Assembly (NCBI GenBank): GCA_048882485.1
Contig: JBHLRP010000001.1
Span: 256,001-320,000, forward strand
From: Candidatus Thorarchaeota archaeon
GTDB taxonomy: Archaea > Asgardarchaeota > Thorarchaeia > Thorarchaeales > Thorarchaeaceae
Length of the DNA: 64,000 nucleotides
Direction: 5' to 3'
Below the pieces are notes generated by a model. It was given only the letters and a program-made list of their open reading frames with translations, searched no databases and was not told the DNA's origin. Below are positions 5,646-63,703 of this stretch, in pieces. The first letter of the stretch is position 1, and each line of letters starts with the position of its first letter. The translations under genes were made by a program, and so were the position numbers.

Positions 5646-7103
5646 ATGGCTGATGTGCCCATAATTAAGAACTACATCAATGGAGAATGGGTTGAGTCCA
5701 GCTCCTCTGACATCAGAGATATCCGGAACCCTGCAAATGGCGAAGTCATCGCGAAGGTCCCGATGAGTACAATCGAGGAGACCAAGGCAGCAATTGAAGC
5801 AGCACACAAGGCCTTTCCCAGATGGCGGCGGACTATTCCAATCACCAGAGCTAGATACTTCTTTGAGATGAAGACTCTCATGGAAGAACGATTCGAGGAG
5901 CTAGCCGAACAGGTTGTTATCGAGAATGGAAAGATAATGGATGAGGCTCGAGGTGAGATTAGACGTGGGATTGAGAATGTGGAAGTGGCGACAGGTATTC
6001 CTTCATTAATGATGGGTTATAATGCAGAAGATGTCTCTCCTGATATCGATGAGATTGTCCTACGTCAGCCAATGGGAGTCTTCTTTTGCTTGTCGCCTTT
6101 CAATTTTCCAAGCATGGTCCCGCTTTGGTTTCTACCAACAGCTGTAGCAACTGGAAACACCTACATCCTGAAACCCTCTCCTATTGCTCCGATTAGTGCC
6201 ATGAAGCTCTTTGAGATAATAGACGAAATCGGTTTCCCTCCAGGCGTAATCAACCTAGTCAATGGCGACATCGATTCCGCAAACACACTTTTGGATAGTC
6301 CCTTAACGAAAGGGGTTTCCTTTGTTGGTTCAACTCCAGTTGGAAAATTAGTCTATGAGAGAGCTGCAGCCAATGGCAAACGAGCACAGGTCCAGGCTGG
6401 TGCCAAGAACTTCCTGCTTGTTATGCCGGACGCTGATCTCGAACGTACAGCATCGGCTCTTATGACTTCATGTTATGGATGCGCCGGAGAACGTTGCCTC
6501 GCAGGTGCGGTTATTCTGGCAATGGAGGAGATCCATGAGCAATTAGTCAAGATTCTTGTCGAGAAAGCCAAGATGATTCGAGTTGGTAATGGTCTTGAAG
6601 CAGGTGTACATATGGGGCCTGTGATCACCGCAAAAGCGAGAGATAGAACATTCGACTTCATTGAGAGCGGTGTCAAGGAAGGTGCCAAATTGCTCCTAGA
6701 TGGTAGAAATGTCAAGGTTGAAGGACACGAATCTGGTTTCTTTGTGGGTCCAACGGTATTCGACGAGGTCACGCCTGACATGCGGATTGCCAAGGAGGAG
6801 ATATTCGGTCCGGTGATGTCAGTAGTGAAAGTGAAGAGCTATGAGGAAGCTTTGGACATCATTCATGCTAGTCCATTTGGCAATGCATCTTCTATCTTTA
6901 CCTCCAGTGGAGGATGGGCAAGGAGATTCTCATATGAGGTGCCAACCGGGAATGTTGGAGTTAACATAGGAATCGCGGCTCCAGTGGCTCATTTTCCTTT
7001 CTCTGGGATGAAGGACTCATTCTTTGGAGATCTGCATGGTCAGGGAAGAGATGCAATTCGATTCTTCACCGAGGACAAAGTAGTTATCACACGTTGGTTC
7101 TAG
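5646..7103 (+). CDS. mmsA: CoA-acylating methylmalonate/malonate-semialdehyde dehydrogenase
   Basis: ALDH motifs PFNFP, FVGST, GAKN, catalytic 'AGERCLA', EEIFGPV, 'FFGDLHGQG', C-terminal 'ITRWF'. Confidence 0.9.
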   Translation: MADVPIIKNYINGEWVESSSSDIRDIRNPANGEVIAKVPMSTIEETKAAIEAAHKAFPRWRRTIPITRARYFFEMKTLMEERFEELAEQVVIENGKIMDEARGEIRRGIENVEVATGIPSLMMGYNAEDVSPDIDEIVLRQPMGVFFCLSPFNFPSMVPLWFLPTAVATGNTYILKPSPIAPISAMKLFEIIDEIGFPPGVINLVNGDIDSANTLLDSPLTKGVSFVGSTPVGKLVYERAAANGKRAQVQAGAKNFLLVMPDADLERTASALMTSCYGCAGERCLAGAVILAMEEIHEQLVKILVEKAKMIRVGNGLEAGVHMGPVITAKARDRTFDFIESGVKEGAKLLLDGRNVKVEGHESGFFVGPTVFDEVTPDMRIAKEEIFGPVMSVVKVKSYEEALDIIHASPFGNASSIFTSSGGWARRFSYEVPTGNVGVNIGIAAPVAHFPFSGMKDSFFGDLHGQGRDAIRFFTEDKVVITRWF

Positions 7104-59106: not shown

Positions 59107-60051
59107 ATGAGATGTATGGGAGTTGCAGGTAGCGTTTCTCTCTACGCTCATGATGACTCCTATCTCTCCTACTTCAATAGTCCTTTCATTGGTCACAGAA
59201 GATTCAGTTCAATTGATGTGTATCCCGCAGATGGTGCGTGGGACGGTCCAGCGTTTTCACCAATTGATGGGAAAGTCACCCAGGTGAGAACTTTGAAGAT
59301 GGGAAAAAAGAAGGCTTTCCCCACTTCTTCTCGCGACTATGCGATTGCAATCGCACCTGACGATGTGACGGACACAATTGTCCGGATTCTACATTGCAGG
59401 CCCAAAGTATCCGAAGGTGACGTTGTTTCAAAAGGGGATCTCATTGGGAGTCTAATCAGGTCTAGATACTTCTGCTTTTGGACTGGCCCCCATTATCATG
59501 TCGAAGCAATGCATCCGAAGGACTTCATCAGGCCATCTCAATCATTTCCGATAATAGTCAAGACTAGAACGATTAACACTATTCTAGGAAATTCGGCCAA
59601 TCAGTTTGAGTGTGAGGTCATGAACTGCACTCAAGATATTGTGGAGTGTTGGTCACATGAGATTTCTTCCGCAAGCATGGAGGAATATCACGGACACTTA
59701 GCTAAAATTGGCAGTTCATCTAGCATTCTTGATGCTGGCGTCCCCCATTACAAAAAAGGAGGATTGCTAGGAAATCCAATTGCAGATATTGGCTATCCAA
59801 TTCAGGCGTTTGGCGTCTCAATAGGTCGTGTATCATCGATATCTGAATCCTTTGTACAATTCATAATGGAGAAGAATGTAATTGCTACTCTGGATGGGGA
59901 GAATCTTGGGGGTCTATCGACACATCTCTATTCCAATAGGCAGCTAATTAATGGCCGTCCCCCCATCTTCCTGATCCCCGAAGAACGCAATCAGTTTGAA
60001 GGAAGGCTATCCGAGGGTGACTGCATCGTTCTCAGTATCAATAAAACTTGA
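59107..60051 (+). CDS. M23-like zinc peptidase-fold protein without signal peptide
   Basis: 'H.....D.Y', 'SPIDGKV', 'LH', 'V.EGD.V..GD.IG', 'WTGPHYHVE'. Confidence 0.65.
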   Translation: MRCMGVAGSVSLYAHDDSYLSYFNSPFIGHRRFSSIDVYPADGAWDGPAFSPIDGKVTQVRTLKMGKKKAFPTSSRDYAIAIAPDDVTDTIVRILHCRPKVSEGDVVSKGDLIGSLIRSRYFCFWTGPHYHVEAMHPKDFIRPSQSFPIIVKTRTINTILGNSANQFECEVMNCTQDIVECWSHEISSASMEEYHGHLAKIGSSSSILDAGVPHYKKGGLLGNPIADIGYPIQAFGVSIGRVSSISESFVQFIMEKNVIATLDGENLGGLSTHLYSNRQLINGRPPIFLIPEERNQFEGRLSEGDCIVLSINKT

Positions 60052-60074
60052 ATCCCCGTCATTGCTAAAAGCGA

Positions 60075-60109
60075 AAAAGAAGGAGAGAGGAGCTCAAAGG
60101 CTCCTCTCT
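60075..60109 (-). terminator. hairpin plus U-tract terminator of the secreted peptide gene
   Basis: AGAGAGGAGC/GCTCCTCTCT 10-bp stem, followed on the minus strand by CCTTCTTTTT. Confidence 0.75.
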
Positions 60110-60146
60110 GTTGAGGATTGTTTCTAAAAAGCAGAACACATATTCC

Positions 60147-60416
60147 TCAATGGAAATCATAGAAGCAGAAATCGCATCCACCACCCCTATTCGCGACCTC
60201 TGACGACCAGTTATCCTCATGATCACGAATATCGATCGGTACCCAGCGATACATCTGCTTTGGTACTGTTTCTCGGTCCACAGAAATGCTGTCCTTGCTT
60301 GAGTCCTCCTGGCACGGTGTTGCTGACAATGCGTTCACTGCACTAGTAAACACAGCTGCAGCGGACATAGCAAAAAGGACGACTATCCCTGCTGCCAATA
60401 TAGTCCTCTTGTTCAA
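60147..60416 (-). CDS. small secreted peptide precursor (89 aa) with C-terminal GGGCDFCFYDFH
   Basis: Signal peptide MNKR plus hydrophobic core plus A-x-A-like site; purine-rich SD; own promoter and terminator. Confidence 0.75.
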   Translation of the reverse strand: MNKRTILAAGIVVLFAMSAAAVFTSAVNALSATPCQEDSSKDSISVDRETVPKQMYRWVPIDIRDHEDNWSSEVANRGGGCDFCFYDFH

Positions 60417-60569
60417 CTATTCCTACTCTCCTCTATAATGTGCTGCATGGTCAAACTCGCGCAGCAGCCTAGAATACTGCCAGCTGTCTTGAGAGATTTT
60501 GAAAGCAAATTCCTGGGACTGGAATGGACAATGGAGGTCCAGGTTTTTGAAGACATTGAATTCAACCAT

Positions 60570-60606
60570 GTAATAGTGTTACAGCTTACTCAATATATAT
60601 TTTTCG
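60570..60606 (-). promoter_or_regulatory. promoter P1 (BRE CGAAAA, TATA ATATATAT) with operator O1 GTAATAGTGTTAC
   Basis: Same 37-bp architecture as 60751-60787. Confidence 0.7.
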
Positions 60607-60666
60607 ATTACAAGTTTCATATTGCTTATTTGCCCTGTATGAGTTGAAGTAGTTTGCTAGATTATC

Positions 60667-60750
60667 AAAACACAGGCCGGAATCCTCAAGCAAGGCATTT
60701 CGAGAACGCAAGGAAGGCAAGAACACTGTCCTTTCGCTTGAAGATTCCGT
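60667..60750 (-). ncRNA. candidate ~85-nt stem-loop small RNA
   Basis: CGGAAUCUUCAAGC-GA-AAGG pairs with CCUU-GCUUGAGGAUUCCG (a G-U pair favours the minus strand); starts ~30 nt after a TATA box and ends at a U4 tract. Confidence 0.6.
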
Positions 60751-60787
60751 GTGATAGTATTACATGTTACATTATATAATTCTTTCG
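60751..60787 (-). promoter_or_regulatory. promoter P2 (BRE CGAAAG, TATA TTATATAA) with operator O2 GTGATAGTATTAC
   Basis: Operator, extra TTAC half-site, TATA and CGAAA at the same spacing as in P1. Confidence 0.7.
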
Positions 60788-60934
60788 TTTAATCAGAATT
60801 GAATGCTAAATCGGTGTCTAACAGGCCTTTTAGCATATTGGCATCCAAAATATCTCTAAAAGAGTGATCCCCTCTTTTTGGCTTAGAATTCCCTTTGAAT
60901 TGTGGAAACATCCACTCGAAAGACATCATATACA

Positions 60935-60974
60935 GTAATAGTGTTACGTAGAAAAATATATTAGAATTCATTAC
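60935..60974 (+). promoter_or_regulatory. operator O3 GTAATAGTGTTAC next to the BRE/TATA of the RHH gene
   Basis: Exact copy of O1, followed by GAAAAATATATT and a TTAC half-site. Confidence 0.65.
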
Positions 60975-61001
60975 TATAATTAGATAGGACAGGTGATCAC
61001 A

Positions 61002-61334
61002 TTGTCTGAAAAGAAAAGTTCATCGAAAGCTGCTGCACAGCTCAGTCTGAGGGAGGAACTTCTTGGGCAGCTCTCTGCAGAAGAGTTTGGTCTGAAAAAG
61101 CGTGAGATATCTGTAATGACCAGGATGAGTTCGGATATTGTTGAGATTCTTGACGCTCTTGTTGAGCTTGAGATATTCAAGAGTCGTTCTGAAGCAGTTG
61201 CAGCCTTCGTTGAGAAGTCGATTGCATCTCGTGGCGATCTATTCGATGAGATAAAAGTGCAGGCCAAAGAGATTACTCGAATGCGTGAGACCGCAAAGCG
61301 GCTCGCTTTCAAAGCAATGCAGGACAAGAGCTAG
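61002..61334 (+). CDS. ribbon-helix-helix (CopG/Arc-like) regulator
   Basis: Beta strand 'SVMTRM', 'DIVEILDALVELEIFKSRSEAVAAFV'; AGGTGA SD before the TTG. Confidence 0.82.
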   Translation: MSEKKSSSKAAAQLSLREELLGQLSAEEFGLKKREISVMTRMSSDIVEILDALVELEIFKSRSEAVAAFVEKSIASRGDLFDEIKVQAKEITRMRETAKRLAFKAMQDKS

Positions 61335-61654: not shown

Positions 61655-62635
61655 TTGGTCGAAAAGATTCGCTTATCCATTGGTACTGCAATTCAGATGG
61701 GATTGGAGCCAGGCGATTTGGATGAATGTTTCTCGACAGCATTCCTAATGACATATACTGATAGAAGGTGCAGCGCGAACTGTGCATTTTGTCCTCAGGC
61801 TAGGGGTAGCAACTCAGCTTCAGATCGACTTTCTAGAATTTCATGGCCCGTTTACACCTTGGATGACATCATGGAACGATTCTCAGAAGATACTCCTTTC
61901 AAGCGTGTATGCATACAAGTTTTGAATTCGCCCGGCATAACCAAAGATGTCAAGCAGATAATCATTCAGCTTCGAGATAACATACAGATTCCTATTTCAA
62001 TTTCAATTCATCCTCTTTCAAAAGCAGAGATGATGAGACTACACGCAGCTGGAGCAACCAGCATCGGTATTGCGCTGGACGCATGTACTGAGCCTCTATT
62101 TACCAAGATTAAAGGAAAAGAGCGGGGCTCGGCGTACAGATGGCAAACTCACATTGAAGCCCTATCCAATGCTCTGGAAGTGTTTGGAGAGGGGAATGTT
62201 GCCACCCATCTAATTGTGGGACTAGGTGAATCTGAGGAGGAGATCATTGAGTTTCTGAAAAAGATGAAACGCCTCAAGATTCGAGTGGGTCTCTTTGCAT
62301 TCACGAATATTCGCGGTACCGCACTAGAGCATTGGAGCCAGCCAGATATTTCGACTTACAGACGAGTTCAAGTAGTTCATTACATTCTCAACAATGAACT
62401 ACTTAGCGATGACAAAATAAGAATAGTCGAAGGTGGAGAGGTTCAACTGGATTTATCCACGACACGCCTGAAGGAAATCTTATCATCAGGAGCTGCTTTT
62501 CAGACATCCGGCTGCAAGGACTGCAACCGTCCCTACTATAATGAGCGTCCTAGTGGACCTCTCTACAACTATCCGAGACCTCTTTCACGAGAGGAAGTAG
62601 CGGAAGCCATTGCAGCAACCGGTCTGGTGAGTTGA
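61655..62635 (+). CDS. lipS2: radical SAM lipoyl synthase subunit, LipS2-type
   Basis: CSANCAFC plus C-terminal 'TSGCKDCNRP' (TxGCxxCNRP) motif; adjacent to lipoate ligase genes. Confidence 0.8.
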   Translation: MVEKIRLSIGTAIQMGLEPGDLDECFSTAFLMTYTDRRCSANCAFCPQARGSNSASDRLSRISWPVYTLDDIMERFSEDTPFKRVCIQVLNSPGITKDVKQIIIQLRDNIQIPISISIHPLSKAEMMRLHAAGATSIGIALDACTEPLFTKIKGKERGSAYRWQTHIEALSNALEVFGEGNVATHLIVGLGESEEEIIEFLKKMKRLKIRVGLFAFTNIRGTALEHWSQPDISTYRRVQVVHYILNNELLSDDKIRIVEGGEVQLDLSTTRLKEILSSGAAFQTSGCKDCNRPYYNERPSGPLYNYPRPLSREEVAEAIAATGLVS

Positions 62636-62636
62636 G

Positions 62637-63404
62637 ATGGAAGAGGTCCGTTTCCTTGACCTTGAAACAAATGATGCCTACACGAACATGGCGATTGATG
62701 AATCAATCATGCTAGCATTGAAAGCGGATGAGGTTCGCCCGACTCTGCGATTATATCGCTGGAAACCCTCCGCTGTTTCAATAGGTACCTTTCAAGGAAT
62801 GATTGAGGAGGTCGATTTAGACTTCTGCAGAAGACGAAATATCGATTATATCCGGAGAATAACGGGAGGCGGCGCTGTCTACCATGATTACGAGGGCGAA
62901 ATTACCTATAGCATCATCCTACCAAAAGGACACAGATTGGCCCCTGATGATATTCTTGATTCATATCGGCTCCTATGTGGAGGCGTGGTGAAGGGTCTTG
63001 GACATTTGGGAATTGCTGCAGAATTCAAGCCCATCAATGATGTAATTGCTGGCGGCAAGAAGGTGTCTGGCAACGCACAGACGCGAAGACATTCATGTGT
63101 TCTCCAACATGGCACCATACTGCTAGACCTGGATATCGAGACCATGTTCTCAGTCCTTAAGGTTCCCCAAGAAAAGATATCCGACAAGATGATTGCAGAT
63201 GTAAAGGAAAGAGTGACATCTGTTAGAAACCTGCTGGATAGACAGGTTTCTTTTGAAGAATTGAGAGAGGCACTGGTGGTTGGTTTTACTTCTGCGTTGA
63301 GAGTTGAGCTCATTCATGACACTCTGACAACGAGTGAAATTGAGTCAATTCAACGTTTCAATTCTGAGAAATATGGTCAGGATGAATGGAATCTGAAGAG
63401 GTGA
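62637..63404 (+). CDS. lplA: lipoate-protein ligase catalytic subunit
   Basis: NMAIDE, 'RR.TGGGAVYHD', 'ND....KK.SG.AQ', 'QHGT'. Confidence 0.92.
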   Translation: MEEVRFLDLETNDAYTNMAIDESIMLALKADEVRPTLRLYRWKPSAVSIGTFQGMIEEVDLDFCRRRNIDYIRRITGGGAVYHDYEGEITYSIILPKGHRLAPDDILDSYRLLCGGVVKGLGHLGIAAEFKPINDVIAGGKKVSGNAQTRRHSCVLQHGTILLDLDIETMFSVLKVPQEKISDKMIADVKERVTSVRNLLDRQVSFEELREALVVGFTSALRVELIHDTLTTSEIESIQRFNSEKYGQDEWNLKR

Positions 63405-63409
63405 TCTTA

Positions 63410-63703
63410 ATGAGCTATTACAGTCACAAAGTCCCTGGAGGGAAGCTAATTAAAATAAAGGTCGAATCAAAAGATGAGTCCATTAGGGAGATCACGATTC
63501 TTGGCGATTTCTTCTTGCATCCAGAGTATGTTTTGGAGGAGATTGAGAGGTCACTGATGGGAGTCCAGCTTTCGGAAGATGTCATAGTACAGAAGATTAC
63601 GTCAGTGTTGGAGAAGAACCATGCTACGCTAATCGGAGCGAATGCTGGCGACTTTGCCAAGGCAATTATAGCAGCAAAAATGGCCTCAGACCACAACTCA
63701 TAA
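63410..63703 (+). CDS. lplB: lipoate-protein ligase accessory C-terminal subunit
   Basis: 'KVPGGKLI', 'I.GDFFLHPE..L..IE..L.G'. Confidence 0.85.
   Translation: MSYYSHKVPGGKLIKIKVESKDESIREITILGDFFLHPEYVLEEIERSLMGVQLSEDVIVQKITSVLEKNHATLIGANAGDFAKAIIAAKMASDHNS

Follow-up and report, generated by a model that had tools for sequence, protein, structure and literature searches.

Analysis of a 64,000-nucleotide stretch of a Candidatus Thorarchaeota genome (the window; all positions are counted from its first letter) revealed a regulatory cassette that is real and conserved and that we take, with a probability of about 0.7, to be the home of a regulon under an AbmR-family ribbon-helix-helix (RHH) factor. 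It had been proposed in a preliminary description of this DNA that a single factor controls its own gene together with a structured RNA and a peptide that is exported, and this proposal is well supported by the comparison of related sequences. The full layout, consisting of the regulator, operator O3, operator O2 with a hairpin, and operator O1 with a leader and the peptide gene, recurs in three further genomes (G005, G002, and G015) and on two metagenome contigs. In G011, O1, the leader, and the peptide gene have been lost, and O2, O3, and the hairpin RNA have been retained. The DNA between O3 and the promoter P2 is only 44% identical among these genomes, which argues that the conserved parts of the cassette are under selection. 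Across Thorarchaeota, the box lies upstream of most orthologous regulator genes. Taken together, the conservation of the box, its change with the predicted DNA-reading strand, and the homology to AbmR suggest that the cassette is one local portion of a regulon that extends across the genome. The earlier reading had missed the relationship to AbmR, the wider regulon, and the fact that the peptide family is built of repeats.

Three 13-bp sites were confirmed at positions 60570, 60751, and 60935, with spacings of 181 and 184 bp. Three matches to the site were found in the window, compared to 0.04 expected from 100 window shuffles, which excludes chance for the three sites. Operator O1 (60570..60582, no strand) covers approximately positions -13 to -1 of the predicted peptide transcript and is a perfect palindrome in the five relatives that retain the peptide. 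The upstream elements of its promoter P1 (60585..60606, minus strand) comprise a third box, a TATA element (approximately 60592-60600), and a BRE-like element (60602-60606), and the geometry of P1 matches that of 43 target promoters. Operator O2 (60751..60763, no strand) covers approximately positions -13 to -1 of the predicted RNA and is conserved, including its GTGAT half, in 7/7 sequences; the upstream elements of P2 (60766..60787, minus strand) are a third box, GTAAC, a TATA element at 60772-60779, and a BRE-like element at 60783-60787. Operator O3 (60935..60947, no strand) abuts the BRE of the regulator's own promoter, whose BRE-like and TATA elements (60948..60963, plus strand) follow the consensus of 48 RHH promoters, and the position of O3 upstream of the regulator is kept in orthologues of many genera. 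The pentamer TTTCG on the plus strand ends exactly 24 nt from O1 (at 60606) and from O2 (at 60787). Its complement CGAAA, described earlier as part of a promoter module, varies in relatives and represents an ordinary BRE-like element. The sites, their spacing, and the 24-nt offsets are as originally described, whereas invariance of CGAAA, restriction of the motif to the cassette, and CxxC as a feature of the peptide family were not confirmed.

Comparison of the promoters revealed an operator architecture of 5-bp pseudo-palindromic boxes (GTAAT or GTAAC and the reverse) with centres 8 bp apart, two boxes making up 13 bp. In target promoters, a TATA element is followed, often via a third GTAA box, by an operator that overlies the predicted start of transcription; regulator promoters have theirs just upstream of BRE and TATA. 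A third GTAA box located 7 bp before the operator was present in 21/43 target promoters versus 1/48 RHH promoters. According to the proposed mechanism, dimers of the regulator would bind the 5-bp boxes. Because the operators of the targets sit between TATA and the predicted start site, the factor probably represses P1, P2, and the other targets by blocking recruitment of the polymerase or opening of the promoter. Autoregulation, of either sign, is predicted with near certainty because O3 abuts the BRE of the regulator's own promoter.

The regulator gene (61002..61334, plus strand) encodes an AbmR-like RHH protein of 110 amino acids with a long C-terminal helix. It starts with TTG at 61002, where orthologues have ATG, and the protein is under strong constraint (dN/dS < 0.07); the predicted DNA-reading strand comprises residues 36-41. 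The AbmR model NF058631 was matched by 26/26 aligned family members and was the most frequent family among their matches, far below its cut-off. The regulator itself scored 22 bits over profile positions 102-163 only, and assignment to the equivalog needs a whole-protein score of > 160 bits. Alignment of regulator residues 34-70 with the C termini of four AbmR orthologues by hhalign gave a probability of 92.8% and an E value of 4e-7 over 37 columns. The VMTR strand is identical in the regulator and these four orthologues, and K60 and R62 of the regulator align with R150 and R152 of Mycobacterium paraffinicum AbmR, the arginines of the RSR motif. By a length offset of 4, R150 and R152 would correspond to R146 and R148 of Mycobacterium tuberculosis AbmR, both of which are needed for DNA binding. 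An Atlas lead to PF27540 was also counted toward AbmR homology. On the other side, the match is short (37 columns) and far under the family cut-off, and the N-terminal 120 residues of AbmR are absent. The regulator appears to be a distant homologue of the DNA-binding C terminus of mycobacterial AbmR. Since the profile search yielded 465 clusters at 50% identity, the family is broad, being widespread in bacteria and archaea, and the link to AbmR is one of domain homology and not of orthology.

For the putative RHH fold, the matches were weak. Pfam RHH_1 matched the regulator with an E value of 0.025, and a monomer model contained both helices but lacked the strand. The best fold matches were RHH antitoxins, with Z scores of 5.5 (rmsd 5.4, 72 aligned) and lower; a sequence search for relatives with a solved structure found none. 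The regulator resembles CopG, Omega, ParD, MazE, and haloarchaeal CdrS in its predicted short strand followed by two helices, the repeated short boxes, and predicted autoregulation, although its profile and fold matches to RHH regulators and antitoxins are weak. Unlike these proteins, it has no co-transcribed toxin and belongs to a distinct family with an N-terminal helix and a long C-terminal helix. In three distant family members (P0203, P0231, and P0242), a part resembling a Clp N-domain, as judged by inspection, is fused to the N terminus of the regulator.

The genome-wide motif scan identified the motif at several other promoters of the source genome, so that it is not private to the cassette. 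One additional site separates a paralogous regulator gene from an ARPP-1 gene, and others precede a tandem pair of small basic ORFs and a 56-codon ORF; orthologues of these additional targets retain the motif. The exact palindrome, whose central base is C or G with few exceptions, was present in 56/86 family genomes. Most occurrences precede the regulator gene, an ARPP-1 gene, an Lrp-like gene, or a gene for a small secreted protein. In a comparison set of 71 family genes, an operator (one mismatch or less, within 420 nt of the strand codons) was found upstream of 42/59 genes with a VMTR or VMCR strand, 0/10 VVAR, VTIR, or VTLR paralogues, and 0/2 IMTR genes. The VVAR genes have their own, different heptad repeat upstream. 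The 71 genes are mutually kin, and therefore this result is a contrast of few lineages and not a statistical test; it may reflect few evolutionary changes, which weakens the main reading to this extent. Because the box lies upstream of most orthologues and changes with the predicted DNA-reading strand, the RHH regulator is very likely the protein that reads it.

Several of these loci were inspected individually. On C3 of the source genome (G000; L002:360-1809), a regulator paralogue is divergent from an ARPP-1 gene over one perfect operator, a pairing that recurs in many genera. A VVAR-strand paralogue on C12 (L003:1400-2400), with heptad repeats at three neighbouring promoters, adjoins a small membrane protein gene and an ARPP-1-like remnant. 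Two tandem operator-promoter modules on C8 (L005:3090-3575, C8:64590-65075) each carry a conserved GC-rich leader of 45-50 nt and a small basic ORF of ~35-48 codons; they are conserved in G005, G002, G011, and G015 and have no Rfam match. The operator-controlled 56-codon ORF on C23 (L006:2942-3220) has a homologue in genus g5 (L073) and lies directly before an apparent intron-containing tRNA gene that was not reported by Rfam. In another Asgard family (L036 and L037), tusA-like, DsrE-like, and cysteine desulfurase genes are arranged divergently to a homologous regulator, and the intergenic gap of L036 holds GTAA boxes.

Downstream of O2, a conserved putative non-coding RNA covering at least 60678..60750 on the minus strand was predicted from seven sequences, with a 14-bp closing stem, an invariant 26-nt core (60699-60724), and a predicted 11-nt pyrimidine-rich loop (60702-60712). 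The hairpin folds with a z score of -4.5 on the minus strand, compared to -2.4 on the plus strand, and 98/98 cells of the closing stem are paired. All one-sided changes result in G-U pairs on the minus strand, whereas on the plus strand they would be mismatches. Two-sided changes were seen at two pairs, and column shuffles did as well in 79/500 cases; because covariation is no better than this, the wobble pattern, the fold energy, and the invariance of 26 nucleotides make up the case for the RNA. Identity within the RNA is 0.88, versus 0.44 in the adjacent spacer, with flanks 44-55% identical. The loop is exposed in the consensus fold, whereas a single-sequence fold pairs part of it. A 46-codon ORF across the hairpin was rejected, since it has no conserved start and no synonymous change, and the core itself has no synonymous-type variation. 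The RNA occurs within one clade only among the 86 family genomes searched. Covariance models recovered the RNA and the leader solely in this clade, the weaker matches of the RNA model that were checked being coding DNA, and an Rfam search with the RNA gave no match. With its own promoter, non-coding character, and conserved structure and seed, the hairpin is predicted to be a candidate trans-acting sRNA. On release, an sRNA of roughly 75 nt or longer would pair via its invariant loop with distant RNAs. Between etfB and a gene for a membrane protein (L419, G000 C90, ~5850-6280), a conserved intergenic region contains an invariant 32-nt block with a 10-nt word common to the loop (complementary on one strand); it is present in six genomes of the same clade and has no Rfam match.

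A search for targets over translation-initiation regions revealed none that stands out. The best candidate, a weak one to be treated as a lead only, is the tfrA mRNA of thiol:fumarate reductase. In all five RNA-bearing genomes, an 11-nt antisense seed falls in the same gene in one case only, namely, the TfrA-like flavoprotein coding region. The site is as conserved as 2.9% of the windows in this gene, tracks phylogeny, is intact also in two incomplete close relatives in which the RNA was not found, and has a net pairing energy of only -3.5 kcal/mol. A further antisense match, of 17 nt within a gene for cysteine desulfurase, was rejected as not conserved.

The peptide gene (60147..60416, minus strand) encodes a secreted or membrane-anchored protein of 89 amino acids, as deduced from its sequence. 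It consists of a putative hydrophobic N-terminal signal and an acidic spacer, followed by degenerate units of the R(R)VPIEI type (one or two) and a C-terminal GG...YDFH; by inspection, the signal has a basic N terminus, a hydrophobic core, and AxA sites. Orthologues were found in three other GTDB genomes and in metagenomes. With a dN/dS of ~0.2-0.5, the peptide is under purifying selection. Pfam and NCBIfam searches with the 89-aa protein gave no match. The CxxC motif, described earlier as a feature of the peptide, is present in only some copies, orthologues having GCDYC, GIDSC, GLGFS, or GIDFC. The Shine-Dalgarno sequence (60426..60433, minus strand) is invariant in six sequences. The structured leader of 153 nt (60417..60569, minus strand) is closed by pairing of 60447-60458 with 60558-60569 and contains two inner helices; 97% of its cells are paired, the changes being mostly one-sided and of the G-U type, and the leader alone has a z score of -1.8. 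Two-sided covariation is little and within shuffles (147-414 of 500), and the leader has no Rfam match. A hairpin with a U-rich tract after the gene (60070..60110, minus strand) is likely a terminator: the region 60070-60150 folds at a z score of -4.3, and in relatives the hairpin arms are kept while the loops have changed.

By its sequence features, the peptide belongs to a family of Thorarchaeota secreted short-repeat proteins, as a degenerate member. Orthologues of its own group have between one and three units of the R(R)VPIEIH type. A similar exported protein is encoded by 21/28 genomes of another genus; its gene usually neighbours the regulator and follows the same operator, and the protein has either RLDP repeats or RRGPIEI-type units, which number from one to five. 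Across 46 family proteins, repeat number varies from 1 to 5 and RR precedes 65/84 repeat starts; there is one copy per genome, usually adjoining the regulator and lying behind the operator. The profile match between the two groups is weak (probability of 10%, E value of 0.003), and their homology therefore rests on the shared motif, signal, and context. For the related peptide genes of genus g5, the O2 RNA was not detected. In G016 (L042, C154:35-880), two tandem operator-leader-secreted protein modules lie beside a lipS2-like gene with no adjacent regulator.

The same regulon could be organized with the opposite sign at its targets, the factor activating them and repressing only itself. Such an arrangement appears distinctly improbable, since in the targets the predicted start site is covered by the operator, as is classic for archaeal repressors such as MDR1, LrpA, and Phr. 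In its favour are the abutment of O3 on the BRE, the third box, which could guide cooperative binding beside TATA, and the precedent of AbmR, which acts in this way on mcr11 (PMC6282994). The hairpin might also serve a protein, possibly the regulator, as a decoy or ligand, or it might be the leader left behind by a second peptide gene that was lost; together these readings are less probable than a trans-acting sRNA but deserve consideration. AbmR binds RNA, and RNA blocks its DNA binding; for the leader reading, G016 provides tandem operator-leader-peptide modules, and related leaders are likewise closed by a 5' stem. The second conserved intergenic block, with its 10-nt word in common with the loop, also favours this pair of readings. 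Against a lost leader, no ribosome site or ORF follows the hairpin, and the invariant core between poorly conserved flanks is unlike a decaying leader. The preliminary comparison with a type I toxin-antitoxin module or an archaeocin cassette is already largely refuted and very improbable. A small protein with a hydrophobic head, a structured leader, an RNA neighbour, and an 11-nt complement of the RNA within the coding region in the source genome would fit it. However, RNA-mRNA complementarity is no better than shuffles in most genomes, the pairing thus being unsupported, and the complementary RNA arm is locked in a stem. Furthermore, the RNA persists without the peptide gene in G011, the cysteines vary, no PADLOC match was obtained, and no modification, export, or immunity genes accompany the cassette. 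The cassette lies outside the AbmR equivalog, the type I toxin-antitoxin systems, and the CxxC peptide families.

For the peptide, a signalling loop was considered, in which a precursor is cut at RR into short pheromone peptides that feed back on the regulon. The RR before most repeat starts, the variable repeat number, and the single copy behind an operator and usually beside the regulator speak for such a loop. It is nevertheless doubtful, since the window copy has RW and RE at the RR sites, the RLDP repeats of a sister group have one basic residue only, the locus has no linked receptor or transporter, and homology to the RRGPIEI group is weak by profile. No match to the kexin-type P-domain (PF01483) was found in the 90%-complete source genome, which does encode several S8 proteases. 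The peptide may equally well be a surface or matrix protein that carries short strand repeats. A broader proposal, which is improbable, is that Thorarchaeota employ a factor of the AbmR family, whose DNA code they would share with mycobacteria, to control an sRNA together with secreted multi-copy precursors that undergo dibasic cleavage to short signalling peptides, in the manner of eukaryotic pheromone and hormone precursors. In the repression model, release would also yield the exported peptide, which resembles a precursor, together with products of other loci, namely, small basic proteins and an ARPP-1 protein. Among fungal Kex2-processed repeat proteins (KEPs), the criterion is three or more repeats of eight or more residues between dibasic sites (PMC7329392). 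P0276 and P0278 have such repeats, P0278 with a hydrophobic N terminus and RR-separated repeats; the window peptide, an archaeal protein, differs in having one or two degenerate units and no intact RR sites, and no kexin P-domain was found. Should the precursors with RR-separated repeats be processed, they would be relevant to the origin of eukaryote-type prohormone precursors.

The closest known system is AbmR with the sRNA Mcr11 of M. tuberculosis (PMC6282994, PMC7064933, bioRxiv 10.1101/2021.09.03.458936); the archaeal circuit is deduced from sequence. AbmR (Rv1265) represses itself and activates the divergent Mcr11 (PMC6282994), its binding requires four ATGN5 repeats (bioRxiv 10.1101/2021.09.03.458936), and its hallmarks are ATP-enhanced DNA binding, RNA binding, and 39S particles. 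Each of four mycobacterial abmR promoters was found to carry three GTAA boxes with an 8-bp period in DNA of 66-70% GC, and these boxes match the required repeats. The two regulators have in common the homologous DNA-binding domain, the VMTR strand, a basic-Ser-Arg motif, GTAA boxes 8 bp apart, and an autoregulatory site. Mcr11 and the O2 RNA are both divergent from the regulator, structured, and predicted to pair via a loop. In contrast to AbmR, the archaeal protein has no N-terminal domain, its boxes are inverted and not tandem, and the circuit has three separate operators, archaeal promoters, and several further targets; the O2 RNA has no detectable relation to any Rfam family. The sign also differs, activation of the sRNA in M. 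tuberculosis being opposite to the repression proposed here, which counts against the main reading. Because both sRNAs are confined to narrow clades, the pairing of regulator and sRNA is probably convergent. The circuit most likely resembles AbmR and Mcr11 placed on archaeal promoters, with additional small-protein outputs, and by analogy with them it may serve a growth-arrest or energy-stress response. The Methanosarcina sRNA154 (PMC5867862) is likewise intergenic, clade-conserved, and structured, with a conserved loop and stress-type control, but it has no sequence likeness to the O2 RNA and a different regulator, and for the O2 RNA the target is a candidate only.

In the literature on Asgard archaea, no description of the regulator family, operator, RNA, or peptide family was found, and Rfam gave no match for the cassette or for other regulon leaders. 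The locus provides a testable Asgard gene-regulation circuit: its regulator, operator, and targets are defined and can be studied in vitro with no need to culture the organism. AbmR, which has been presented as a novel factor of mycobacteria whose fold is uncertain, is extended to a widespread bacterial and archaeal family, and because the protein-DNA code of this family is apparently conserved, operators can be suggested for hundreds of unannotated regulators.

The neighbouring genes were also inspected. An M23-like peptidase gene at 59107-60051, carrying HxxxD and HxH motifs and lacking an obvious signal peptide, is convergent with the peptide gene and adjoins the cassette in the source clade only. 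Positions 61655-63703 contain lipS2 followed by split lipoate-protein ligase genes, corresponding to the radical SAM route of lipoate assembly. As Mcr11 targets lipB, a link of the RNA to lipoate synthesis was examined and is not supported: the start regions of lipS2 and the lipoate ligase rank 874 and 2277 of 2866 for RNA pairing, and the cassette has different neighbours in other genera.
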